A stretch of DNA of 64,000 bases from Chrysomallon squamiferum (taxonomy: Eukaryota; Animalia; Mollusca): positions 8,556,001 through 8,620,000 of the forward strand of contig CM022668.1 in NCBI GenBank assembly GCA_012295275.1. Reading direction: 5' to 3'. The position numbers and the translations under genes were made by a program. Shown piece after piece: positions 256 to 63,715 of the stretch. Each line of letters starts with the position of its first letter. Position 1 is the stretch's first letter. Under the pieces are notes generated by a model. It was not told the DNA's origin. It saw nothing but the letters and a program-made list of their open reading frames with translations, and made no database searches.

Positions 256-8940
<8,685 letters not shown>

Positions 8941-11944: not shown

Positions 11945-17200
<5,256 letters not shown>

Positions 17201-18845: not shown

Positions 18846-19265
18846 ACGTGTATAGAATTTGACTTCGATTTTCCTTGGTAAATTGTTTAATTTTATTTTA
18901 TTTTTAATTGTATAAGTATATAAGTTCAGCAGCAAAAGAAAATAGTTGTGAATTGTTGTTACAGTTTTCGTGTTGTTGCTTTGTTAGAGCACCTGCAATG
19001 GTTTGGTGTATTATATATTCATTTAATGATTTTATTGTTAATATAGTTTGAAACGATATTTATTAAGAGTGTTTTATTTGTGAAGATTTGTTGACAACAA
19101 TATAGTATTTGTTAGTCGATTTATTTATATTCAGTTTAGGCTAAACTCGAGGTTATATTAATTCTGATTAGCTTAAGTAATATTAAAAGTATTCATTTAA
19201 AAAAAAAAAAATTTATTATTATTATTTTTTTTACAGTGAACAGCAGTCAATATCGACCATCTAAA

Positions 19266-20114
19266 ATGGATCACGTATTAGCTAGTTACAGAAGCAATTG
19301 GCGATTTTTCAAAAATGGAATTCTCTGGTGTGGAATGGCGGCTGACTGTGTCACATTTTGCTTTCTAATGCGAAGAGAACAAAATCAGTCCATCTGGAAT
19401 CTCATTCTAATCTCGTTTTTCGACGGGATCTTCTTGAATATGTTGTTTCTCTATTTCCAAAGTGAACTGCAGTGGTTTTTCAGCATTCATGCAGTCATTG
19501 ATGTGTTCTTTCTTATATCCGGTGGTTTCAAACTGAAAGCCCTCATTCAAGAGTTTATGACTTTAGAAACTCTCTTGCAATGGAAATCGATACCTCTAGA
19601 CATTAACCATGTCAGCAGCAGATTTATATTTCTGTTCATCATGGTATGTATTGCGCTGCCTTGCTTCCTTATCATCTACATCCATTTCGAGGTCTACAAC
19701 GTGTTCTTTATTTTACAGTTTACAATGGAGATCATTTTTCTTCATATGCTACCTCTGTCTTTAATCGCATGCATGATTCCATGTATTAAACTGGACCTCA
19801 GACAAGCCAAGCAATGTTACGAAGCGAATACAAGTCCTTCCTTCCAACCATTTTTCACCAACGTCGTAATTTCTGTGTGTGCCGTATCGTTTCTGACCTA
19901 CTCCATGCTCTCCCTCATTTTATTGCTCCAGTACATCTACTCTTACATAATATGGCAGGAACTGTCTGTTATGGCCACCTGTGTAATAACCGTCCAGTCT
20001 TTTGCCAACTTCTACTTTGTGATGCTGTCGAAAAATAGCATACGAAGGAAGTGTATGAAAAAAGAAATCGAAGCTTGTTCAGAGGTAGTGGAAACTTTGA
20101 AGAATAAGGTATAA
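19266..20114 (+). CDS. Divergent seven-transmembrane rhodopsin-class (GPCR/chemoreceptor-like) protein, 282 aa
   Basis: Single coding exon after the acceptor at 19236, first ATG at 19266. About 7 hydrophobic segments with class-A remnants: TM2 LILISFFD, TM5 FLHMLP, TM7 QSFANFYFV followed by IRRKC. AATAAA at 20123. Confidence 0.75.
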   Translation: MDHVLASYRSNWRFFKNGILWCGMAADCVTFCFLMRREQNQSIWNLILISFFDGIFLNMLFLYFQSELQWFFSIHAVIDVFFLISGGFKLKALIQEFMTLETLLQWKSIPLDINHVSSRFIFLFIMVCIALPCFLIIYIHFEVYNVFFILQFTMEIIFLHMLPLSLIACMIPCIKLDLRQAKQCYEANTSPSFQPFFTNVVISVCAVSFLTYSMLSLILLLQYIYSYIIWQELSVMATCVITVQSFANFYFVMLSKNSIRRKCMKKEIEACSEVVETLKNKV

Positions 20115-21073: not shown

Positions 21074-23995
21074 TCATCTCTTAAACTCAGTGCTCATGTC
21101 AACGTTCTGCCACGGCAGATTAAACACTTTAATTTGACCTCTACGTTCACCTATGAACAGTCTGTGTTTATGATAATCATAATAAACACCATCAGGACTA
21201 CTTAGATCATCATCCTGCGTAATAATCTCAGACACACAGCGACCCTCTGACGTCAGCTGGACTATTTTATGTAGTCTGATATCTGCAACGAAAACGCCTC
21301 CATCTAGGTCACACGATACACCAGCAGGGTACTTGATCACGTGATGTAGACCTGCATACCCCGTATCTTCGAATGGGTACGTCCATTTAATCTTTCCTGA
21401 AAGACTGACGCAAACGAGTTTCATGCATGACGTCATTTTGCCTTCTGCCATTGCATAGCATTTATCCACGACAATTAACTCTTTTTTGGGTGTCAATGTT
21501 AAGTATGTTGGCCTCGAGAATAAAGACCCGCCATCGCAGACAGAATAAATCAGATACCCTGACGAATCTACAACGTCGACAGCTGGAAGATGTTCCCAGG
21601 GAGCGCTGGCTGCAAATTTGGTCTCCGTTATACCCGCCAAATAGTGGTATTTTTTCTGAGTAAGGACGTGATAGTTATATTTCAGCTCTGGTGTCACGCA
21701 TAGAAACAGAATCTTCTTAGCCTCCGGTACGGCTACAGCAACACCACCTAGAGTCGATCTCGTTACTCCTTTGGGGAATTCTGTTAGATGAAAACAACTG
21801 TGTCGATATTGGTCAGCCTTGTAAAAGAAACATTTCACGGATTTGTTCAAATGGTCACCCACTACAATGGCTGAACCCCAGACTGTTTCTATAACTGTTA
21901 TGTCTGTAATGTATGGACAGTATTTATCATCTCTGAGTCGCGCACAAATAGAACGATCCAATTCCCATCTGCCAATAGCTGGATCACGAATACTGTTCAC
22001 TGAAACATATTTCAAAGATCCTTTGTTCCAGTCACGTCGTAACATTTTGTAACCCTGACCAGGCCCCCCAATAACCGGTTCTCTAGCAATGTCATACTGA
22101 AACCATTTGCTGTTGTTCGGATGCAACTGTCCAGGCATTTCACATTCAGAATCGTCGTAATAGGGAATTTTATTTTTGTAGATATTGTCTCTCCTCCGAT
22201 ATGTAACGCCCGGGTGATAAGGGTATAGACTTTCTCGAGGTGAAATGTCTTCATCGTCTGGTTGTGTATCATCGATTTTTATATCTCGAGAATGCCCTGG
22301 ATTAACTTCGTTAGCCGGAGTTGTCTTTCTTTCCTCAGGTTGATGGCGTGTTTTGCCTGGAGCTGCCGTTTCCGGACTTGTGTTTCCTTTATCATTTCGA
22401 TCACGTGTCGAAATTGGATTTTCTTTCGTTGTATATTTTTGTTGTCGGTTCACAACGGGGTTTAACGGAGATGTTGCTGTGTCCGTCTCTACGTCTGCCT
22501 GTTTAGCAGGTGCTATGTCTGTGCTTTGTTTGACTTTCTCTGACTTGACTGTGGTTCTTTGTTTTGATTTAGGAGGAGCTGGCGTTGTTGTACAACCTAG
22601 AGGAAAGAGAGAAAAATAAAGAAAGAAAGAAAAAGAAAAAGAAATGTAAATTCAAATATCTGATAATAATAATTAACAGCGATTTATGGCACTAAACGGC
22701 TGAAGTTAACACTATAAAGTCTCTGAAAATAAGAAGAAAGAAGACGATACTGGTAGCGATTCAAGTTTGACTGTCTATAACAGTGATTCTCAACCAGTGT
22801 GCGCAAACGTTTGTAGAAAAAAAAAATTCCAAATCTCATTCGTACGCATTGCTTTCTACATAGAGAAGTTCTTGTTTCAAAAATATCTCAGGAAGATTTT
22901 AAAAAATTGTGTTACATCAAGTTATTGGAATTATCAATTATATAAGAAGTAGGCCACTGAAGTCACGATTATTTGAACAACTGCGCAAAGAGATGGACTC
23001 TCAGCATGTTAAGTTATTAATGCACACTGAGGTTCGCTGGCTGTCGAAAGGCAAAGTACTAAATCGTGTTCACGAACTGCACAAGGAATTACTATCATTT
23101 TTCTCTCAAGGAAAAGCAGGAAAAATTCTGTTAATACCTTAGTTGCGAATTTTGGATGTCTAAAATGGAATACCTAACAAATATTTAGTGAACTAAATAA
23201 AACAAACAGTAGTATGCAAGGCAAAAATGAAAATATTCTCACTTCAACATACGAGATAGTTGCCCTCAAAAAGAAAATTGTGATTTGGAAAAAAAGAGCA
23301 ATCACTGGCAATCTTGATATGTTCCCTTTATTGCGTTCTACCTGCATTAGAGAAATGATCCCTATTGTGTTTACTCATCTGACAGCCCTGGACGAAAGCA
23401 TCAACAATTACTTTCCGTCAATAAAGACAGAAAAGTATGACTGGATTAGAGATCCTTTCATAAATCATTCTTCCAACATTAAACTTGAATTACAGTTGGA
23501 TGCTGTCTATGACATCCATGTTTATATTTTGCAAAATTCAAATATTTTTTCATATATATTTAGACAGGTGTTCCAAGGTGTGCTGTTGGCAAAAAAAGGT
23601 TGAGAACCACTGTCCAATAATAACACAAGTAATAAAAAAAAGGTTGAGAACCACTGTCCAATAATAACACAAGTAATAAAAAAAAGGTTGAGAACCACTG
23701 TCCAATAATAACACAAGTAATAAAAAAAAGGTTGAGAACCACTGTCCAATAATAACACAAGTAATAAAAAAAAGGTTGAGAACCACTGTCCAATAATAAC
23801 ACAAGTAATAAAAAAAAAGCTGCTGCTAATACTGCCACTGCTGCTTCTACTGCTGATACTTCCACTACTACTAATATTCTGGTTTTTCATCTTATTTATT
23901 TATTTATTTATTATTTTTAATGGTTTCTAAATATTTACATACAAAAAACATATTAAATAAGATTAATTTATTTTTGAATATTTACCGTTTCCCAT
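21074..23995 (-). CDS. NHL-repeat / six-bladed beta-propeller protein with N-terminal MGNGC lipidation motif and disordered linker, 510 aa
   Basis: Coding exon 23995-23986 (ACA ATG GGA AAC G|GTAAAT, in-frame stop upstream) splices in phase to 22596-21074. C-terminal NHL-type blades: FSRPTYLTLT..ELIVVD, KYPAGVSCDLDGGVFVADIRLHKIVQL, LSSPDGVYYD..LFIGERRGQIKVF. Probable UTR exons at 24058-23996 and 24512-24423. Confidence 0.85.
22781..23612 (+). mobile_element. Internally deleted hAT (Charlie/Buster-type) DNA transposon
   Basis: Terminal inverted repeats CAGTGATTCTCAACC...GGTTGAGAACCACTG. Broken transposase fragments include INYIRSRPLKSRLF...LLMHTEVRWLSKGKVL and MQGKNENIL...FPLL...WIRDPF. Left flank GTCTATAA resembles a Charlie target site; the right TSD is imperfect. 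Confidence 0.9.
23591..23818. repeat. 44-bp tandem repeat x5 made of the hAT right TIR plus flank
   Basis: Unit AAAAAAAAGGTTGAGAACCACTGTCCAATAATAACACAAGTAAT; TIR ends fall at 23612, 23656, 23700, 23744 and 23788. Confidence 0.95.
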
Positions 23996-41025: not shown

Positions 41026-43066
41026 TGTGTGTGTGTGTGTGTAATAACAGAAAGAATATAACAGATTTTCAATCCTCCTTCACCTTTTTTTTGTTGTGAT
41101 TTCTGAATATTATTAGATATTTAATGAACAAATTCAGGTTTAGAAAATTAAGACTTGCTGTGTTTATTATTTGAATTAAACAGAGCACACAATGTTTTCT
41201 GTACAGACTGGAATTGTTTGTTTATTTATTTATATGTGTTATTTTTTCTGCATTTTTAATTGGATGTGTATATCACATAAGTGTACTGATAAACAAATAT
41301 TTTCTTACAGAGATGGCTGTCAGTGGTTTTTCACTGAACTGTACAAACTGGGCATTCCTCTTCTCATCTTCTCAGCTGGAATCGGCGACATCATTGAGGA
41401 GGTCATACGTCAGCAGTCTGAGTGGTACGACAACATGAAGCTTGTGTCCAACTTCATGGACTTCAACAGCGAGGTCTGTACACACACATATATATATGTA
41501 TATACAGCTACACAGGCATACACAAAAAAATATATATCACATATACAGTCACACACATACACACATATATATGCACAACACACACACACACACGCAAGAC
41601 ACTGTCAGATCAAGGATCCATTCTTTTCAGAACTGCTTTATTTATTTTTCTGTTTTGGGATCATGTTTTCTGTAAAATACATTTTCTTTCTTATTAACCA
41701 TGATATTTTATAACCACAGATTTAAACTACAGTCAAATTTCTATGATACAAACATGAAGGAAAGCATATTTCATTCTCCTTAATCAATGACCCATTGTTC
41801 TGTAATTACAAAGGGAAACAATAGCTTGACCGTTCCTGTGTTTCAAGTATTCAAAGATTAATTTCTGTTAGATCGGTAGTCTCGGACTATAAAATGACTG
41901 AGAAATCGAGGTTTTTCAGTTATCAACATGTGAATTTTTGAAGTTATTATTACTTGTTTGGCCAGGACCAGCATTTCAGTTGGAGAAACTATGGTGAAGA
42001 TATTGGGTTTTCTATCAGTTTAGAAATATTGCCAGTATGTTGAATAAAACATGTTTTCTTTGTCCCGTGGTAAACTGACAGGTTTAAAATATTCTGTGAG
42101 TTGGTGTGTATATGTGTATTATGATGTTAAATAAAACATTTCTTTGTTCCAAGAAATGTTTTATTTAACATCATGTTCATATTGGATTTTCACTGGTTTA
42201 AAACTATAGTCAGTTTATTTATTTAATCCAGGGTAAGCTGATTGGCTTCAAAGGAGATCTTATCCACACTTTTAACAAGAATGAAAACAGCATTCATTCT
42301 TCAGATTACTTTGAGAAACTGAAAAACCACGAGAATCTCATCCTCCTAGGAGACCATATAGGAGACCTGCAGATGGCAGAAGGAGCTGAAGTGACCTCCT
42401 GTTTAAAGATTGGCTTTCTTAATCATCACGTAAGTTTCAAATGGCTTTCATAGATTAGATGTGAAGTTACTGTTATGGGTGTTTTAATACCAATTTGAGT
42501 AACTTTAGTTAGTTATTCAGAAATTCAGATATCAATTTACTTATATGACAAGTTTAAATATTAATTTAATTATTTATTTTAATACTTCACATATTAATTT
42601 TATTATTTCCTTTAAAGAATCATATATTAATTTACTTAGTGATTTAAAGTATAAATTAATTTACTGATTTACATTGATATTTTTTTCAAATAGTCATTTA
42701 ATTAGTCATTTAAAAAATAAAAATATTAATTTATTAAATTACTGTGAAATCTTCTATACTATAACTAATTAGCTATTAATGAAATTCAGTATTGTTTTAA
42801 TCAAGATATACACATTTCTAAAGTAAATATTATTATTACTTTTATATTTTTAATTATTTATAATTTTTAGAATATCTCTTTTTATTATTATTATTATTAT
42901 ATTATTATTATTGTTATTGTTATTATATTATTATTATTGTTATTGTTATTATTTTCAGGTTGAGAAGAATTTAGAAAGTTACAAAGAGAACTTTGATGTT
43001 GTAATTCAGGAGGATGAAACGATGGATGTTGTCAATGCTATCATTCAAAAAATATGTGAAGTTTGA
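27239..43066 (+). CDS. NT5C3: Cytosolic 5'-nucleotidase III (HAD superfamily, pyrimidine 5'-nucleotidase/UMPH-1 family), 289 aa, 9 exons
   Basis: GT-AG, in-phase exons: 27239-27247 (MDL), 31172-31270, 32319-32388 (VVADFDRTLS, HAD motif I), 33196-33242, 33630-33715 (PIEFD..EEKIPQIIEW), 34220-34309, 41311-41473 (LIFSAGIGD, VSNFMDF), 42232-42429 (LIHTFNKN, LLGDHIGDLQMAEG, LKIGFLN), 42959-43066. Total 870 nt including stop. Confidence 0.95.
28432..28640. repeat. About 40-bp degenerate tandem repeat
   Basis: TTTTATTTACTGAGGTTTTAAAGTTTAGTTTAAAGAGGTG, about 5 copies. Confidence 0.8.
29485..30046. repeat. Long inverted repeat (foldback / MITE-like) in NT5C3 intron 1
   Basis: Arms of about 190 bp, TACTGAAATAATATGGAGTTAAATCTGAGGATTATTT... 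and ...AAATAATCCTCAGATTTAACTCCATATTATTTCAGTA, with TA at both ends and an (AT)n-rich centre. Confidence 0.9.
36855..37150. repeat. Degenerate short tandem repeat
   Basis: Recurrent AAGTAAGTTTTAAAATATGTTC(C)T units. Confidence 0.75.
40830..41042. repeat. (GT)n microsatellite with internal duplication
   Basis: GT run in which TTTGTGTATGTGTCTTGTGTGTGACT occurs twice. Confidence 0.93.
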
Positions 43067-47300: not shown

Positions 47301-47904
47301 CATTTATTTTATTTATTTATTGTTTATAATTCTTGTATTTTTATTGCATATAACTATTATTAATTACGCAGTTTTAAATTAAACAGTTTCAAAATCGTTT
47401 GGTTTGCCCAAAATAATAGCTTGTGCATTTATTTGGAGTCATTTTTATTCTTAGAATAATTCACTGAATATGTTTACAAAAGCAAATACTGTCGTCAACT
47501 TACCTAAAATAAATTTAATATATAAAAATGTTAAATAAATGGAGAATCTAAATTAATGGAGAATCTAAAAAACAAGCTAAATCCAAATATATTTAAATCT
47601 TAATATATTGAAACAATTCATATTATCTGAAATAAATTTAATACTAGCATATAAATTGTTAAATAAGTGACTTAATTAACTGAGTATTTAAAAACAGGAG
47701 AAATCTATAATTTAATACTCAGTTGTCGTAACAAATTTTAATTTAAATACACATTTATATATAAGGGAAATCTGCTAGAATATTTGCCTTGAGCAACCAA
47801 ATTTGAGTCATAAATAATAAAAGTTTATTTTCTATTACGAAAATAATTTTCTAGTTAATATATTGTACTGGATTAATAGCATAAATATCAAATCAGTGCC
47901 AAAA

Positions 47905-50142
47905 AATCAAACAAAACAACAGCAACCCATCAAACAAACAAAACAACAGCAACCCATCAAACAAACAAACAAAACAACAGCAACCCATCAAACAAACAAA
48001 CAACAGCAACCCATCAAACAAACAAACAACAGCAACCCATCAAACAAACAAAACAACAGCAACCCATCAAACAAACAAAACAACAGCAACCCATCAAACA
48101 AACAACAAATCAAACAAAAAAAACAAACAACAGCAACCCATCAAACAAACAAAACAAAACAAACAAACAAAACAACAGAAACCCATCAAACAAACAAACA
48201 AAACAACAGCAACCCATCAAACAAACAAAATAACAGCAACCCATCAAACAACAAAAAAAACAACAGCAACCCATCAAACAAACAAAACAACAAGCAACCC
48301 ATCAAACAAAAACAAATCAAACAAACAAAACAACAGCAACCCATCAAACAAACAAAACAACAGCAACCCATCAAACAAACAAAACAGCAACCCATCAAAC
48401 AAACAAAACAACAGCAACCCATCAAACAAACAAACAAAACAACAGCAACCCATCAAACAAACAAAACAACAGCAACCCATCAAACAAACAAACAAAACAA
48501 CAGCAGCCCATCAAACAAACAAACAAAACAACAGCAACCCATCAAACAAACAAAACAACAGCAACCCATCAAACAAACAACAGCAACCCATCAAACAAAC
48601 AAAACAACAGCAACCCATCAAACAAACAAAACAGCAACCCATCAAACAAACAAAACAACAGAAACCCATCAAACAAACAAACAAAACAACAGCAACCCAT
48701 CAAACAAACAAAATAACAGCAACCCATCAAACAAACAAAACAACAGCAACCCATCAAACAAACAAAACAACGGCAACCCATCAAACAAAAACAACAGCAA
48801 CCAATCAAACAAACAAAACAACAGCAACCCATCAAACAAACAAAACAACAGCAACCCATCAAACAAACAACAGCAACCCATCAAACAAACAAAACAACAG
48901 CAACCCATCAAACAAACAAACAAAACAACAGCAACCCATCAAACAAACAAAACAACAGCAACCCATCAAACAAACAAACAAAACAACAGCAACCCATCAA
49001 ACAAACAAACAAAACAACAGCAACCCATCAAACAAACAAAACAACAGCAACCCATCAAACAAACAAAACAACAGCAACCCATCAAACAAACAAACAAAAC
49101 AACAGCAACCCATCAAACAAGCAAAACAACAGAAACCCATCAAACAAACAAACAAAAAACAACAGCAAATCAATCAAAAAAAACAACAGCAACCCATCAA
49201 ACAAACAAAACAACAGCAACCCATCAAACAAACAAAACAAAGCAACCCATCAAACAAAAACAACAGCAACCCATCAAACAAACAAAACAACAGCAACCCA
49301 TCAAACAAACAAACAAAACAACAGCAACCCATCAAACAAACAAAACAACAGCAACCCATCAAACAAACAAAACAACAGCAACCCATCAAACAAACAAAAC
49401 AACAGCAACCATCAAACAAAACAGCAGCCCATCAAACAAAACAACAGCAACCCATCAAACAAACAGTGACAGCAACCCATCAAACAAACAAACAAAACAA
49501 CAGAAACCCATCAAACAAACAAACAAAACAACAGCAACCATCAAACAAACAAAACAGCAACCCATCAAACAAAACAACAGCAACCCATTAAACCAACAAA
49601 ACAACAGCAACCCATCAAACAAACAACAGCAACCCATCAAACAAAACAACAGCAACCTATCAAACAAACAAACAAAACAACAGCAACCCATCAAACAAAC
49701 AAAACAACAGCAACCCATCAAACAAACAAACAAAACAACAGGAACCCATCAAACAAACAAAACAACAGCAACCCATCAAACAAACAAAACAACAGCAACC
49801 CATCAAACAAACAACAGCAACCCATCAAACAAAACAACAGCAACCCATCAAACAAACAACAGCAACCCATCAAACAAACAAAACAACAGCAACCCATCAA
49901 ACAAACAAAACAACAGCAACCATCAAACAAACAAAACAGCAACCCATCAAACAAAACAACAGCAACCCATTAAACAAACAGTGACAGCAACCCATCAAAC
50001 AAACAAACAAAACAACAGCAACCCATCAAACAAACAAAACAACAGCAACCCATCAAACAAACAAAACAACAGCAACCATCAAACAAACAACAGCAACCCA
50101 TCAAACAAACAACAGCAACCCATCAAACAAACAGTGACAGCA
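47905..50142. repeat. 2.2-kb A/C-rich satellite, about 21-28 bp unit
   Basis: Core AACAGCAACCCATCAAAC separated by variable (AAAC)n linkers. It creates the spurious 792-aa ORF. Confidence 0.97.
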
Positions 50143-51118
50143 GTAATAGCACCGAGACGCATCACCCCTCCCCACTTTTACGCGAATTCTAGAACTTGCT
50201 TTGTGCCAGATAAAATAAACCTTCAAATTTTAGTCAGCTAAACAGAAGCTCCATTAAATAGAAGCAGTACTGTATCTTAGTTTTAAAAGTTGAGTTTGTA
50301 GAATAAGATAAAACCGATATAATTGTATAACATTATTAAATACTTCAATATAATTTATTTTTCTTTGATTATCATCATCATCATCATCATCATCATCTCA
50401 TCATCATCATTATTATTATTATCAAAAGAAATAATGCATATATATTTATTTATAATATTACTATGAGATGTACTTATAGCCGAATCAATATTTTAGAAGA
50501 AATCGGTAACATGTTGAAACAAAGCAGTTAAAACGTGACGACTCAAATCTGTTCAAGGTGAAACAGTTAAACAGCTGCCAGTACTGAAAACGTGATCTCT
50601 TGTTGGAATCAGTAAACAAATATTGCAGAATTAGAACAATTCTCCAAGTGTGTGACTTTTTCGTGCGTTAATTAGTTTATTTTGTTCAAGGCAGGGCAAG
50701 ACCCCCACACGGGTCAAAAACCGCCTCCCAAGTAACAGATATCACGTGATGAAGCGGGTCATTTCGTGTCATATTTTGATTGCTTTGTTGTTGTTGTTTT
50801 TTTCATTGTTATGCTGTTTGTTTCTTCTATAATATCTATCTATATCTATATCTATCTATCTATCTATCTATATCTATATATATATATGAAAATAAATAAA
50901 TAAATAAAAGGAAAAAAAATAACATTTACAATTGCTTTTAAACATGAAACAATTATAAATAATAATTTATAAATAAGATATTAGAAAGAAAGATAATAAA
51001 ATAAATACGCACTAAGTTCTTCGTGCTATATAATTTTTTGAAAAGTACGCAGCCGTTTTTTTCTGTAGTAATGACTTCAAAAAGTGTTATCTTGGAGCAT
51101 TGACTGGATCGGGACAAA

Positions 51119-53015: not shown

Positions 53016-54018
53016 ATGAGGCTGTGTTTACTTCTCGTAGTTGTAGTTGTTGCATGCCTGGCGGTAGCAGAGTCGCATGTATCTTGGGAACATCATCATT
53101 TCTTTAACTGTGCAAACAGGTGAAATGTTATAAATTATTATTTTTATTTGTTACATGTTTTAAAGTTTGCTGCTGTAACTTTTTTCCGTTTTATTAATTA
53201 ATTAATTAATTTATTTATAACACATTTTTCTTCTGTAACTCTATATTATTATTATTGTTCTCATCATCATCGTCATCTTGATTATTACTGTTACTAAAAT
53301 CATTAATATTATTATTATATATATATCGAGAGATTTGTTATCATTCTTAATTTGGTTATTATTATTAACTACGTTTTATTGTTACTGGTGTTGCTATAGC
53401 TATAATACTGTAATCCATTATTTCAGAATTAAAACGATGCAAATCAGACTCGATCTTCTGAAAAAACGGTTAGATGATTGCGAAGCCAAAAGTATGTAAC
53501 ATTACTGCACTTTATTTGCAAAAATAAATAAATAAATAAATAAATAAAATAAAATAAAATAAAATAATTATAATTTCTAAATTCTGAATACAAATTGTTA
53601 AAGCAGTTAATTATTATCGTGTCCTATAAATATGCACCTTAATTCTAAATAATTATTACATTCATAGTTCCCTTACTGATACAAAAATATAGAGTTATAT
53701 ACAGTCATACAAATACACATTTATATGCACTTCACCAAATATAGCATATTTACACATAGATACATACATACATACATACATACTCATACTTAAACGTAGG
53801 CACATATGCTGACACTAATATTTAAACACACATATTAATTACGGAGATAATATCTACTAGTTCAACACAAAGACATACACATTTTGACGTACAACATTCG
53901 TTTAACTACAAATAAATAAAAAAAATTATATAAATAACTTATAAAAGCAAATTTATTATCTGAGATCACTACATTCTAATGTATGTTATTTTTTGTTTCT
54001 TTGCAGCTACTACGAAAC
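53016..54018 (+). CDS. Small secreted protein (signal peptide, His-rich N-terminus, short coiled segment); first three exons
   Basis: Exon 53016-53119 MRLCLLLVVVVVACLAVAES-HVSWEHHHFFNCAN; exon 53427-53491 RIKTMQIRLDLLKKRLDDCEAK; 12-nt microexon 54007-54018 (TTGCAG|CTACTACGAAAC|GTAAGT, TTTK). All in phase. TTTATAAG at about 52948 upstream. Confidence 0.75.
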
Positions 54019-58229: not shown

Positions 58230-59479
58230 AAAACGTTAATGATGGGAATGCAGACAATGCAAATGGTAGAACGATTTGCATTTATTTTTCTTCATTGAAT
58301 TTTTAAATATGCTGTTCATCTTATCCAAATATCAAAATAAAGAAGCTATAATAACTTTGAATACATTTTATTATTTTCTAAGACAACTAGTCAAGTAATA
58401 GGTTCTTTTGCGATAAGTTCTGGTATTTGGTGGATGTAGTAATTCATACTCTCCGAAATTTCGTTATACCACCCAACACGTTTTAGCGCCAGAAATCAGT
58501 TGACTGTAACTCTTTATTTAATTCGACCGTCACCAAAACTTTTGAATTTAAATATAGACAAACGGTTTCGCAGAGGCACATTTTAATGTTGCTTCTTCAG
58601 TCAGGTTAAAAACAAGAATCTAGTATACTAACCTCACAGGTGCGCTAATAAAGCAGGTAGTTAGAGCTACACAGTGTTAGACAAAACACGATAGGATTTT
58701 CACTGAGATGAGGCCAGAATAGGATTAGTAGAAAGCTTAAAAAACGTTTGTGCTTAGCTTTTACCAGTTAAAAGAAACCACTATGAATTTCAATTTAGTT
58801 ATTATATTTCATTCACATTTTGAACTTGACCAATACGGTCACATATGTTTCTTATAACTTACTGGTTTCATCACTGGTTTCATCACTGGTTTCTATATCA
58901 GGTCTAATTCGAGCCATGTTTTTATACATAAACAATCTGTTATTTGTGTCAGGATGATGAAAAGACTGATACTGAACACAGTTTTAATAGGTATCTTTGG
59001 TGTTACGAAGAAATAGTCAGGATGTACTGTGAATACAAAGCTATATTTTATTTGTTTAGTTGGAAATTAGAAGAAACTGAAACTAACAAAGATATTCAGA
59101 TGAACATAATTTTATTTAGAAACAGTATGTTGAACAAAGCAAAAGTCCTTCATTTTGAGTGAGACTGTTGAACACTCTGTACAGATCATACTGAAATGAA
59201 TATATATATAAATATAATATATTTTCATATTTCTGAGATACCAAATTAGACTTGACAAAAAACCTTATATGAATTAAAATATTTATTTTTTAATATCGCA
59301 CTGAAACATTAAATATATATAATTATAATAAAGAAATTTTAAAATTACACTGCTGTATTTTAAACTATTTAAAAACATTTGCGACGTAATATACTTCGAT
59401 AAAAGTGGCAAACCTTTATATCTAGCATGTACTAGACAGAGTACAATGAGATACGACTGAACAAGTTATTTTTCTATTA

Positions 59480-60434
59480 CTAACTTGAACAGCACACGTT
59501 GTGGTTATAACAGGTGTACCGATCACTAACAATTCCACCGTCAGACAGACATTGCTTCTCCGTTCTCTTGCAGTCTGATGTAACTGGGTTATCTTCACAG
59601 GCTGAAAGAATAATCAAGTTATCAGTATTAGACACGAAATAGTTCTCTCTGAGTTCACATCCAAGTACTACACCTAAATGTGTCTGACAAAATATAATAA
59701 TAATAATAATGATGATGATGATGATGATAAAAAAGTTTTAAAATAATAATAAAAGAAAGAAACTAAGGAAGAGATATGAACAAAAAAATGAGAGAGAAAA
59801 CGTATGAGAAAGGAAAAAGGAAAAGACGAAAAAAAAAGAAAGAAAGAAAGAAAGAAAGAAATACAAAAACAAAAAAGAAAGAAAACAAAGAAGAGATAAG
59901 GAAAAAATGTGATGAAGCAAAAGCTACTATGTAACTCCAATATCAAATCGTGTGTTAAGATTCATCTTGGGTAAACTGAATTATGTAATTATTTAAATTC
60001 CTTACATCAAAAGCATTCGTAAGATACCATTTCCATTACAACTGAATAGCCTAACATTATATATATATATATATAATTTTTTTTCCAGTGCCTTCTCACA
60101 TTCAAAATGGCAACAAAATCGGTTACAGATGTTACAAAACAATAATTGCGTTGAATTTTCGTTGTTACTATTATACTACTGCATAGAGCAGTAGTAATAA
60201 TATAGCAGTAGTAATAATAGTTACAACGAAAATTCAGCGCAACTATTGTTATTTCTTCATCTTGTTCTTGTTGTTCTTCCTACTTCTACAACATCAACAA
60301 CAACAACAACTACTAATGCTATTATTAAGAGACTTACGAAGTTCTTCTGTAACTAAAAAAAGATAAATAAATAAAAATAATAATAATATGAAACAAACAT
60401 ATATGAACATACACTTAAATACATATACACATTA

Positions 60435-60494
<60 letters not shown>

Positions 60495-61202
60495 CACACA
60501 CGTATGTGTATATATGTATCTATATAAACATACAGTAAGTAAATAAAACAACAGAACATACTATTAAAGGTTTAATAATGCCATTACTATTACTACTGTT
60601 ACTAAAACTACAGTTACTAGAAATGTTATCATTATTACCATAGTACCCAACATTACTTCTTTCAGTGAGAGCATTATCGATTCTTTGTCACGATATTTTC
60701 CTAAGAATCAAACTTATTTTGTACGTATGTTTAGAGAAGAATGAGTACCTCTTGATATACCATCGCTACCACTACTAATACCACTTACTATTATCACCAG
60801 CACCCCACCATCATCACCACTGCTACTGTTACTACTACTACTGCTATTAACACAGCTTTATCTACAAATATTACTACAACAAGCACTATTATTACTACTT
60901 CTTCTACTACCTGCTATTACCATTACAATCAGTATAACCATTATTATTACAGCTGTATCAAAAACAATTAATACGAGATTTTACTATTAGTTTAACTAAG
61001 AAGTCCACCAGTACTACGACATCTACTACATCTACTACATTACAGAATTTCTTTAATATAGTACCAAATCAGATACGTTCTCATAACAAAAAACATTTGT
61101 CAGAACTAGTTTACCGACGATGTTGCGTCTGTTATCGGCTGGTGCACCAAGTACAACCATACACACAGCTGCGACAACGGCAATGACGATACACGACTTC
61201 AT
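59480..61202 (-). CDS. Secreted six-cysteine beta-defensin-like / toxin-like peptide precursor, 72 aa, 3 exons
   Basis: Exon 61202-61115 (ACAACATG; MKSCIVIAVVAAVCMVVLGAPADNRRNIV, G|GTAAAC), 9-nt microexon 60346-60338 (TTACAG|AAGAACTTC|GTAAGT), exon 59601-59480 (TTTCAG|). Product: MKSCIVIAVVAAVCMVVLG-APADNRR-NIVEELPCEDNPVTSDCKRTEKQCLSDGGIVSDRYTCYNHNVCCSS*. Confidence 0.85.
60138..60250. repeat. About 45-bp-stem inverted repeat in intron 2 of the defensin-like gene
   Basis: AACAATAATTGCGTTGAATTTTCGTTGTTACTATTATACTACTGC pairs with GCAGTAGTAATAATAGTTACAACGAAAATTCAGCGCAACTATTGTT. Confidence 0.9.
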
Positions 61203-61214
61203 GTTGTTTGTGTT

Positions 61215-61250
61215 CGTACTGAGATGTGCTGAAGAACTACGTTATAAGAC
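61215..61250 (-). promoter_or_regulatory. TATA-like box and initiator of the defensin-like gene
   Basis: Minus-strand CTTATAAC (about 61248-61241), then TCAGT (61222-61218) about 20 nt downstream and 16 nt before the ATG. Confidence 0.5.
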
Positions 61251-62539
61251 GCAAGTCTCTCAGACTGGTTTGTTTATCACTGCAAGAGACAATGCCACGT
61301 ATATAACAAGGATTAAATAAATAAATAAATAAATGAGTAATAATAATTTAAAACGTATACGAATAAATATGTATGTAAACTAAACTATCTGTTTTTAACT
61401 TGGTTAAATGAGAGACATCTGTTACAGAAATATATAAAGAAAAAAGTAAAACAAAATGGGAAAAAGAAGAACTATTGATAGCTAATAATAATAATGATGA
61501 TGATGATAATATGAACTAGAAAAGTGATGATAAAGGTAGTTGTACATGTAGCATAAGAACAACAGTTTGCTTAATATATTAATTAATAATACTCTGGCCT
61601 CGCCGATTTGACCGAGCAAGTCTTCAAATGTAAAACGGGATGAAGTGAGCTACAAACACTGGGATTTTAGCAGCAGCATCAACCTTGCGTTCTCCAATTG
61701 TTTGTTATCTACACCCAGTTGTTCAAATACATACATGCATACATACATCAATACATACATACACACATACATGCATACATATACATTCATACATACATAC
61801 ATACATACAGGTATACATGCATACATACATATATACATATATACAAACACATAATTATACATACATATCATTCAGCCACATATTGTAGTTCATAACAAAA
61901 CCAAGAAAAACCTTTCAGTAGAATTAATAAGGTTCTGGCATTAGGATACAGTACACTTTAAAGATATATGGGGAGTGTTTTGGGGCTGCTACACCAGGCC
62001 TCATTACGACCATGTTTTTATAAATATGCGTTGTATTTATTATGTGTCAGGATTTAAAAACAAAACAAAACAAAACAAAAACCTGCTTAGCATGCATGTT
62101 TGGTGACATGAAAAAAAATCGTATAAAATAGTATAAATATATTGGCATATTTCGAACTACAGTTTTATTTATTTATTTATTTGTTTATTTATGAATATTC
62201 TTTTAGCTAATGAGTTAAAAACAAAAACAATAATAACATATACAAAGAAGCACTCCAACTTATACATAAAATTAACAAATTCACACAAGCACGTACGCAC
62301 GCGCGCACACACACAAACACATGCTTACATATCTATTTCAAAAAAAAAAAAAAAGACTATTATTACTTTTACTTCTACTACCACTCTGATATTACTACTA
62401 CTATCACGTATTTTTAGTATTAGCGTAACTATTACTACAACCATTTCTCCTAATCTTTAAAGAAAAAAAACAAAAACACAACAAAACTATAACAAAAATG
62501 TTGAAATACGTGAATACATGAAAAGTTTTAGGAAAACTC

Positions 62540-63715
62540 AAATTAACAAAGATATTCAGATAAAACAAATTTTATTTAGTAACAGAATGTTGAACACAGC
62601 AAAAGTTCGATTTTGAGTGAGACTGTTCCACACCGTACAGATCATACTGAAATAAATTATGTGTAAATAAATTAAACCATCCATCCATTATCTATATGTT
62701 TGTCTACCTACTTACCTACCTACCTATCGATCCATTCATCTATCGCTCTGTCTGTCTGAGTATCTGTCTGTCTATCCGTCTGTCTGTCTGTATATCTATC
62801 TATCTATCTCTATTTATCTATGTGTCTATCTAGAAAGTAATCATTATAAAAGCAAAAATAAAGAAATAAAATTAAAAATTAAAATTAAAAATTAAAATTA
62901 AAATTAAAATTAAATAAAGGAAAAAATAGGAAAAGAAATCAAAGAAAATGGTAAAAATAAATCATAACAAAAAGAATACATTATTATATTATATATAATA
63001 TTATCAGTATAGGAAAAGATAACTCTTTGTTTAGATTTCGGATTTGAAGGGTGCCGATTTGTACAGAATATCTTATATTAGACATACTTTATTATATTAG
63101 TAAAAAAAAAAATTATATCACTGAAACATTAAACTATTTAAAAACATTTGCTACTTACTGTGAACAATCGTTTACACTAAGAAATCTATTCTACGATGAG
63201 GTACTTCTGAGTAAAGACAAGTGTATGTTCGACTATTGTACTATTATTACTTGCCCCAACAGCACGTTTTGTCATTAACACAGATGTAGTCGTGCTGAAC
63301 GACTCCGCCGCTGACGTTGAGACAGCGTTCTCTGGCAGTTCGACGCTACCGGGTTATTTCAGCAGTCTGGAAAAAAATAATAATAAAAAAAATAAACGAA
63401 GAAAAGGAACACTATTAGTCACAATACACTTGTCTGAGTACACATTCAAGTACTACTAGAAGTAATCTATGAATGGATTGAGAAAGAAAAGAAAAGAAAG
63501 AAAACGAAGAAGAGATAAAGGAAATGAAAAAAAAAAAATAATAATAATACAATAAAGTAAAATAAAATAAAATTCAGGGAAAAAACCCAGCAACAAACAA
63601 ACAAACAACAAAATGTTGGAAAAGGAAAAAGATAAAGAAGGAAAAGCTACCATAAACTCTGAATATCAAATAACAAGTTAAGATACATTTTAGGTAATCT
63701 GAATTACCGATAAAA
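62540..63715. repeat. Direct segmental duplicate of about 59080-59990
   Basis: Shared blocks in the same order: AACAAAGATATTCAGAT...TTTTGAGTGAGACTGTT...ACAGATCATACTGAAAT, CACTGAAACATTAAA, the Cys exon, TCTGAGT.CACAT.CAAGTACTAC, GTTAAGAT.CAT.TT.GGTAA.CTGAATTA. Confidence 0.85.
63247..63366 (-). pseudogene. Paralogous six-cysteine defensin-like terminal exon, disrupted
   Basis: TTTTTCCAG|AC TGC TGA AAT AAC CCG... reads C*NNPVASNCQRT, then an apparent 8-nt deletion shifts the frame into CLNVSGGVVQHDYICVNDKTCCWGK*. Confidence 0.8.

Follow-up and report, generated by a model that had tools for sequence, protein, structure and literature searches.

The window, the 64-kb stretch of DNA analysed here, contains on its minus strand a three-exon gene (copy A) and, 3,765 nt upstream of it, a true paralogue (copy B). 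The coding part of copy A exon 1 (61202-61115, minus strand; 88 nt) begins with an ATG at 61202, ends at a phase-1 GT donor, and encodes a hydrophobic, signal-like core (approximately residues 4-18) followed by a short pro-piece containing RR. Exon 2 (60346-60338, minus strand) is a symmetric, phase 1-1 micro-exon of 9 nt that adds two acidic residues and has the predicted signals of a long pyrimidine tract, AG acceptors and a GTAAGT donor; a predicted alternative in-frame AG acceptor would extend it to 15 nt (60352-60338, minus strand). Exon 3 (59601-59480, minus strand; 122 nt including the stop codon) has its phase-1 acceptor one codon ahead of the first cysteine and encodes the motif C-x8-C-x6-C-x12-C-x5-CC, a spacing of 8-6-12-5-0, with the stop codon two codons beyond the CC. 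Both introns are GT-AG and phase 1, and the joined frame is open, encoding a precursor of 72 aa (74 aa with the longer exon 2). The exons are 45-51% GC (0.51 for exon 1) and the introns 28%. A likely 3′ UTR end (59074-59214, minus strand), with AATAAA at 59116, is common to copy B (84% over 141 nt). An earlier sequence-only reading had reported a gene here that was absent from the list of open reading frames; copy A is confirmed as a gene that such a listing cannot capture, and the splice junctions, charge count and cysteine spacing given in that reading are exact on recomputation, as is a short pro-piece ending in RR, located at residues 25-26.

Cleavage after RR is predicted to leave a mature peptide of 46 aa, with approximately seven residues between RR and Cys1, eight acidic (D/E) and four basic (K/R) residues, and a pI of 4.5. 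Another dibasic pair, KR, comes after Cys2. The signal peptide was judged by hydropathy alone (Kyte-Doolittle peak 3.5), and by this heuristic the ATG exon is one of three signal-like starts on the two strands of the window, one of the three being inside satellite. A loose form of the cysteine pattern followed by a stop codon was found a single time in the window; among 100 third-order Markov simulations, 2 contained it. On this gene model, copy A is an intact three-exon gene whose small, acidic product has six cysteines and is predicted to be secreted. Elsewhere in the window, the Cys-rich frames at 48-50 kb are satellite, a second signal-peptide gene stands tail to tail with copy A, and Gigantopelta aegis LOC121387738 shares 75% identity with the ORF at 21077-22651 across 67% of the query.

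The cysteine exon of copy B (63247-63366, minus strand) has an intact AG acceptor, an in-frame TGA (63361-63359) directly after Cys1, and a frame change between Cys2 and the GG motif, a stretch of 25 nt in copy B versus 30 nt in copy A, such that Cys1 and Cys2 (63364 and 63337) are in a different frame from Cys3 to Cys6 (63324, 63282, 63264 and 63261). Assembly error is an unlikely source of these lesions because a public DNA contig (run X1) carries identical letters over 63130-63366 (0 differences, 0 gaps, depth 25), with the caveat that run X1 may be the source sample and that contigs can drop alleles. Three RNA runs yielded no contig over copy B, a result with no bearing on expression. Nor is the exon rescued by another acceptor: three AG sites give frames with four cysteines, none has a pyrimidine tract, and only one of the three (a GAG) is in phase 1. 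Two further blocks flank the exon, one (63592-63706, minus strand) homologous to copy A intron 2 (59983-59868; 75% over 118 nt) and one (62534-62669, minus strand; AATAAA at 62576) homologous to 59074-59214. Exons 1 and 2 of copy B, if present, would by distance be expected from about 64060 onward, past the window end. Copy B is thus likely a pseudogene, a broken tandem duplicate of copy A, and with the stop and the frame change the window therefore holds one gene and one likely pseudogene rather than a family.

The paralogy itself is well supported, as the two cysteine exons align with a score of 62 against a background mean of 17.8 (sd 3.0, maximum 39, 1,587 tiles) and the intron and 3′ blocks are also common to both copies. 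The cysteine exons are identical at 57/87 nt and the best 3′ block at 119/141. Over 28 codons dN is 0.35 and dS is 0.89 (dN/dS about 0.39), with the same amino acid at 15 of them, and second codon positions are identical at 23/29 sites versus 34/58 for first and third positions. Tests for residual constraint gave p values of 0.055 and 0.06, so constraint between the copies is only suggestive; the dN/dS of 0.39, not above 1, gave no sign of positive selection. A tblastn search of the 64-kb window yielded no third copy. These observations revise the proposal of an anionic, fast-evolving tandem family. The duplication stands (a score of 62 versus a maximum of 39), but copy B does not keep six cysteines in one frame, and a family of intact copies is not found in the 64 kb. 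The anionic character is seen in copy A, the two readable pieces of copy B having two D/E and three K/R residues. Fast evolution is favoured by the exon being less alike than the 3′ block, and is opposed by the dN/dS ratio.

Searches for relatives of copy A were uniformly negative, although such blanks are weak for a 39-aa query and the HMMER filters drop weak matches. The cysteine exon matches no Pfam family at E<=10, and neither the copy A peptide nor an A+B profile matches PDB sequences. In a set of 5.8 billion proteins there is no candidate for the cysteine exon among proteins of 34-111 aa, and none with the signal exon among those of 26-86 aa. Four matches among 1.84 billion representatives of all lengths were rejected, all four being repeat-inflated and without the cysteine scaffold. 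The Atlas gave no usable match (recognition 1982, against 2300 for known families), and metagenome contigs gave no match to the motif common to both copies, with 0 of 237 candidate stretches confirmed. Within the sequence sets searched – Pfam, PDB, the protein sets and the Atlas – the copy A peptide is therefore an orphan with no detected relatives, and the close match to a named family that would have removed its novelty was not encountered. In the literature searched, the 8-6-12-5 spacing is named in no title or abstract opening, and a search for Peltospiridae and defensin gave no described effector peptide, the match being a mytilectin study. The available main text of the Gigantopelta hologenome paper contains neither 'defensin' nor 'antimicrobial', and 'defensin' occurs in none of 10 supplementary files (PMC7895826).

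Comparison with defensins shows resemblance in gene architecture and departure in spacing. Copy A lies outside the beta-defensin consensus, C-X6-C-X(3-5)-C-X(8-10)-C-X6-CC, with only the last interval within the reported variation; lizard beta-defensins often have x5 before CC, and some members are anionic (PMC6716921). The earlier statement that the spacing is wider than in vertebrate beta-defensins holds for the first three intervals, all outside this consensus. It also lies outside the big defensin consensus, C-X6-C-X3-C-X13(14)-C-X4-CC (PMC10608444), and the three gastropod rows available for comparison, 5/6-3-13-4 (PMC7203481). With approximately seven residues from RR to Cys1, the big-defensin hydrophobic N-terminal domain is missing, as had been noted. 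Like vertebrate beta-defensins and crotamine-like peptides, copy A has a precursor, here of predicted secretion, and six cysteines with a terminal CC, but it differs from them in the first three intervals and has no Pfam, PDB or fold match to them. The precursor layout and intron phase resemble those of defensin genes: in the accessible parts of the account, both beta-defensin and big-defensin genes have their cysteine module preceded at its 5′ end by a phase-1 intron, and have a dibasic pro-site, tandem copies with pseudogenes, and products that are sometimes anionic (PMC7203481). Copy A shares the signal peptide (by hydropathy) and the phase-1 intron with beta-defensins, and its RR, at a predicted cleavage site, corresponds to the KR or RR ending the prodomain of big defensins. 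Phase-1 introns are common among genes for secreted proteins, so the intron common to copy A and the defensins is weak evidence.

The closest architectural parallels are the crustacean panusins and the short non-canonical big defensins (beta-defensin-like peptides), lacking the hydrophobic domain, of two bivalves, Ruditapes philippinarum and Dreissena rostriformis. As far as the available text describes them, they share with copy A a signal peptide, a short dibasic pro-piece, the lack of a hydrophobic N-domain, six cysteines ending in CC, a phase-1 intron just 5′ of the cysteine module, and tandem copies with pseudogenes; the Ruditapes form also has a short exon 2 (PMC7203481). They differ in a spacing of 6-3-13/14-4, in showing no detectable sequence similarity to copy A, and in the position of the GG motif, which is between Cys1 and Cys2 in these peptides and after Cys3 in copy A. 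The same portions of that paper report no non-canonical big defensins of gastropods. The canonical gastropod big defensins (Haliotis and Pomacea) are from the same animal class as copy A and likewise have six cysteines ending in CC and C-x3-GG; in the supplement, two Haliotis sequences carry C-x3-GG-x-C and one Pomacea sequence is acidic (pI 4.96), but they have mature forms of 98-112 aa with an N-terminal domain, a 5/6-3-13-4 spacing, and a phase-0 intron 1 (PMC7203481). Copy A, unlike these, is approximately 46 aa, has no N-terminal domain, and has a phase-1 intron 1. In Pfam the canonical gastropod forms go by the name Defensin_big, and copy A has no Pfam match.

Two structure models of the copy A peptide are of low confidence (mean pLDDT 56.4 and 57.3) and differ from each other. 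The first has two strands only, whereas the second AlphaFold model has helices at 8-12 and 14-19 and strands at 23-25, 28-32 and 35-38; both place a helix over Cys2-Cys3. Foldseek and VIA-align found no fold match to the models (best E 6.6), and at pLDDT 56-57 the beta-defensin fold and its 1-5, 2-4, 3-6 disulfides stay a proposal from the sequence. The strand order of the second, low-confidence model is the three-strand order of trans-defensins, and the predicted helix and three strands would fit a trans-defensin-like peptide, as would the phase-1 intron before the cysteine exon, the dibasic pro-site and the terminal CC.

Our tentative interpretation, to which we give somewhat less than an even chance, is that copy A is an orphan, divergent, trans-defensin-like host-defence or immune-signalling peptide gene of a peltospirid-related gastropod, with copy B as its broken tandem duplicate. 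The precursor would enter the secretory pathway by its signal peptide (residues 1 to approximately 19) and be cut after RR by a convertase, freeing approximately 46 residues, in which three disulfides would pin an N-terminal helix to a sheet of three strands that ends in CC. Because the peptide is acidic, with a pI of 4.5, it would be expected to bind one particular target, of microbial or host origin, and not to lyse membranes as cationic peptides do. Such a scaffold may be a defensin with a shifted register, in which Cys3-x3-GG-x-V corresponds to the opening Cys1-x3-GG-x-Cys2 of big defensins from abalone, Val standing where these have Cys2, and two of the copy A cysteines are in an added N-terminal helix; with such a shift, pairing need not be 1-5, 2-4, 3-6. 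The locus would have undergone birth and death, with duplication followed by constraint on both copies and then loss of copy B.

Rather unlikely, in our view, is that copy A encodes a non-immune, secreted cysteine-rich peptide – a water-borne or mucus signal like Aplysia attractin, a protease inhibitor, or a shell or scale matrix component – whose CC ending is convergent with defensins. Consistent with this are the acidic charge, the lack of a sequence or fold link to any defensin, the helix over Cys2-Cys3 in both models, and the neighbouring tail-to-tail signal-peptide gene. Attractin is acidic, and its first two cysteine intervals are 8 and 6, as in copy A, but it is not known to have a terminal CC, its fold is all-helical, and the predicted strands of copy A are unlike it. 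Pfam and PDB contain attractin and clip-domain entries, yet copy A matches neither at E<=10, bearing in mind the HMMER filtering, and has no fold match to attractin. The clip domain, in which six cysteines form a module attached to a serine protease and the loop between Cys3 and Cys4 is long, was rejected for copy A, which has its stop two codons after CC, a Cys3-Cys4 gap of 12 and no Pfam match. Attractin is, in the available description, a secreted gastropod peptide of 58 residues with three disulfides, its precursor being a signal peptide plus product without the dibasic pro-piece of copy A (PMC3484142). A role in venom, raised in the sequence-only reading, is very improbable; copy A would then target ion channels in the manner of crotamine or sea-anemone toxins. 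Toxin genes, like copy A, can have a signal, a dibasic pro-site, six cysteines with CC at the end, and tandem duplication, and crotamine has a 6-6-11-5 spacing close to the 8-6-12-5 of copy A. Crotamine is strongly cationic, however, and the copy A peptide is acidic, with no PDB match for it or for the A+B profile; moreover, the neighbouring gene 75% identical to a Gigantopelta aegis protein points to a host related to peltospirids, and the nearest named relative of the host lives on endosymbionts, 'venom' occurring 0 times in the available main text (PMC7895826).

There is only a small probability that copy A is open by sequence but silent, mis-joined (with exon 2 skipped or other exons used), or part of a pair that is decaying as a whole. 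The death of copy B, the 9-nt exon 2 with two possible acceptors, and the borderline constraint tests (p 0.055) are compatible with this, but in copy A the frame is open, the splice sites are canonical and have strong tracts, the exons are GC-rich, and six cysteines, a signal-like start and a conserved AATAAA block are present; skipping exon 2 keeps the frame, so the cysteine domain would be made either way. We similarly consider it improbable that copy A is a symbiont-control peptide from oesophageal-gland bacteriocytes of a chemosymbiotic snail, on the analogy of aphid BCR and legume NCR peptides. The host is likely peltospirid-related, by one neighbouring gene, and two peltospirids, in the text available, harbour endosymbiotic gammaproteobacteria, with pattern-recognition genes expressed in their oesophageal gland (PMC7895826). 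Aphid BCRs are described, in the portion available, as orphan signal-peptide proteins of 67-108 aa with six or eight cysteines, tandemly duplicated, of which two were absent from the official gene set (PMC3574423), and copy A resembles them in being an orphan of about 70 aa with a signal peptide, six cysteines, a tandem duplicate, omission from annotation, and a presumed symbiotic host. Aphids belong to another phylum, though, and the likeness is analogy only; BCR and NCR genes also form multi-gene sets, against one intact copy in 64 kb here. Equally doubtful is the more specific proposal that copy A gives a first sight of an orphan scaffold of defensin type with a shifted register (C8-C6-C12-C5-CC), secreted in the bacteriocytes of a chemosymbiotic vent snail and controlling its sulfur-oxidising endosymbionts. 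It would then be the molluscan equivalent of the NCR peptides of legumes and the BCR peptides of aphids, and more copies would lie past the window end.

The dead twin, copy B, weakens the case for an expanding family, and if copy A is not of defensin type it would be one more orphan secreted cysteine-rich peptide, of a kind common in mollusc genomes. If the trans-defensin-like interpretation is correct, copy A would widen the trans-defensin scaffold to a new cysteine spacing and would be a candidate effector peptide for a group of snails for which the searches turned up no described one. The control that vent snails exert over their symbionts is a standing question, and copy A would then open it to a test that needs a single synthetic peptide and tissue RNA that already exists.

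The six-cysteine peptide precursor designated copy A is encoded on the minus strand by three exons: an 88-nt first exon opening with the start codon ATG (61202-61115) and ending at a GT donor, a 9-nt second exon (60346-60338) with a long pyrimidine tract ahead and GTAAGT after it, and a third exon at 59601-59480. Both introns are in phase 1, and the spliced frame is open for 72 amino acids, or 74 if a second, in-frame acceptor 6 nt upstream is used to give a 15-nt exon 2. GC content is 45-51% in the exons vs 28% in the introns. The precursor is strongly hydrophobic at residues 4-18, and the peptide following the dibasic pro-site RR (residues 25-26) has 46 residues, eight of them Asp/Glu and four Lys/Arg (pI 4.5), with cysteine intervals of 8-6-12-5-0. 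By our own heuristic, the 64 kb contains three signal-like starts including the copy A ATG exon, and a loose cysteine pattern with a stop arises in two of 100 simulated windows. A hidden three-exon minus-strand gene at 59480-61202 for a six-cysteine peptide, as proposed in the sequence-only reading, agrees with the splice signals and the open joined frame. Copy A passes all sequence tests made and on those grounds is a real gene – an orphan encoding a predicted cysteine-rich secreted peptide of unusual spacing.

The tandem paralogue, copy B, has its cysteine exon at 63247-63366 on the minus strand, starting at 63366, 3,765 nt from copy A exon 3. The exons align with a score of 62 (background maximum 39 in 1,587 tiles), and by this comparison copy B is a true paralogue. 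Collinear blocks common to both – 75% over 118 nt in the intron and 84% over 141 nt on the 3′ side, with AATAAA in each – indicate that the duplication took in a whole gene unit, and copy B exons 1 and 2 would be expected just beyond the window end. The proposed duplicate 3.8 kb away is therefore present, but not with an intact six-cysteine frame: read from the phase-1 acceptor, TGA at 63361-63359 comes right after Cys1, and Cys1-2 and Cys3-6 are in different frames. From Cys2 to the GG motif (the glycine pair after Cys3) copy B has 25 nt vs 30 nt in copy A, and both DNA alignments place the gap just before GG, a placement that would leave Cys3 of copy A with no cysteine partner in copy B. No alternative acceptor yields a six-cysteine product. 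In public data of run X1, a DNA contig of depth 25 spans 63130-63366 and agrees with the window letter for letter and without gaps; this argues against an assembly slip as the source of these lesions, X1 being possibly the source sample and its agreement bearing on the assembly, not on other individuals. Judged by its sequence, copy B is broken and likely a pseudogene beside copy A; there is no third copy within the 64-kb window, and the idea of an intact, diverging family is wrong inside it.

Over 28 comparable codons the copies share 15 identical amino acids, with dN 0.35, dS 0.89 and a ratio of 0.39, which gives no indication of positive selection; the sequence-only reading had taken the pair for a fast-evolving family of anionic beta-defensin-like peptides. 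The synonymous excess (p 0.055) and the conservation of second codon positions (23/29 vs 34/58; p 0.06) are both borderline, and exon identity (57/87) is lower than that of the 3′ block chosen as best match (119/141; p 0.002). Our reading of these alignments is that both copies were under constraint for some time and that copy B was lost later.

Elsewhere, a second small gene lies tail to tail with copy A on the plus strand at 53016-54018, possibly reaching ~58230, with a signal-like first exon from ATG 53016 (no Pfam match) and candidate exons near 53427-53491 and, as a 12-nt micro-exon, near 54007-54018. Of 2,186 candidates, only two proved related to a 525-codon ORF at 21077-22651 (minus): LOC121387738 of the peltospirid vent snail Gigantopelta aegis (75% over 67% of the query) and, at 76%, an unnamed protein with PF01436. 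This one gene suggests that the host is a gastropod close to Neomphalida. The window's own copy has no Pfam match at E<=0.01, nor has a single hydrophobic 324-codon frame at 19140-20114 (plus), by eye a multi-pass membrane protein. Major-facilitator transporter exons (632-1867, minus; Sugar_tr match, SLC22-like by eye) and pyrimidine 5′-nucleotidase exons (41180-41710, plus; UMPH-1) are also present. Inverted duplicates occur at 3792-4343/15615-16166 (552 nt, 98%, each arm with an exon-like frame containing Cys) and 10590-10796/17952-18158 (207 nt, 95%), and two arrays of a 36-nt unit (6854-7491 and 13204-13959) are oppositely oriented and ~73-79% complementary. Long low-complexity and cysteine-rich frames in the strand-biased satellite at 47860-50200 (GC skew -0.77, AT skew 0.87) are false.

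Relatives of copy A were not found in Pfam, where the short query makes a blank weak, nor, with the same short query, among PDB sequences, a 5.8-billion protein set of limited lengths, the ESM Atlas or metagenome contigs; eukaryote micro-exon genes are poorly represented in these sets. Four matches among 1.84 billion representatives were all repeat artefacts. AlphaFold predicts a helix at 14-19 and two strands from the single sequence (pLDDT 56.4), and helices at 8-19 with strands at 23-25, 28-32 and 35-38 from a three-row alignment including separate copy B pieces (pLDDT 57.3); five fold searches gave no match to models of this confidence, and the beta-defensin fold put forward in the sequence-only reading is a hypothesis.

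The spacing of copy A lies outside the beta-defensin consensus, C-X6-C-X(3-5)-C-X(8-10)-C-X6-CC (PMC6716921). Big defensins are defined by C-X6-C-X3-C-X13(14)-C-X4-CC and a hydrophobic N-domain (PMC10608444, PMC7203481), a definition that copy A does not fit; we therefore assign it to neither group. As far as these sources extend, both groups resemble copy A in precursor layout, in a phase-1 intron before the cysteine module and in permitting acidity, and resemble its locus in tandem duplication with pseudogenes. Two Haliotis big defensins in the PMC7203481 supplement begin C-x3-GG-x-C; copy A has C-x3-GG-x from Cys3, with Val in place of Cys, on the first predicted strand of the weak model (pLDDT 57.3). 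Going by this short motif and weak model, copy A could have arisen from such families if the defensin core lost part of its middle and a new N-terminal helix contributed two cysteines. Counting against such descent, the phase of intron 1 differs in gastropod big defensins, so far as the sources describe them, and copy B has one extra residue before GG if TGT at 63324 is Cys3. No peltospirid defensin was found in the literature searched, with subscription papers and bioRxiv supplements outside its scope; 'defensin' does not occur in the text and 10 supplements of PMC7895826 (long files perhaps incomplete), nor 'Peltospir' or 'Neomphal' in three supplements of PMC7203481.

Among other roles, secretion for a purpose outside immunity, for example as a pheromone, an inhibitor or part of a matrix, is possible, if less likely. 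The first two cysteine intervals of attractin, an Aplysia secreted peptide, are 8 and 6, as in copy A. Attractin is the comparison peptide for a pheromone-type role (PMC3484142). A symbiont-control peptide, by analogy with the bacteriocyte-specific cysteine-rich peptides of aphids (PMC3574423), appears improbable, as does a silent or mis-joined gene; the text of PMC7895826 describes peltospirids nourished by endosymbionts in the oesophageal gland. That text makes no mention of venom, and a venom peptide seems very improbable.

We tentatively favour copy A as a secreted, compact, disulfide-bonded peptide in host defence, and infer each step beyond the gene model. The precursor would be secreted and cleaved at the RR site, and the mature peptide would form three disulfides in a compact helix-on-sheet; because it is acidic, it would likely act in host defence by target binding or signalling rather than by membrane lysis.
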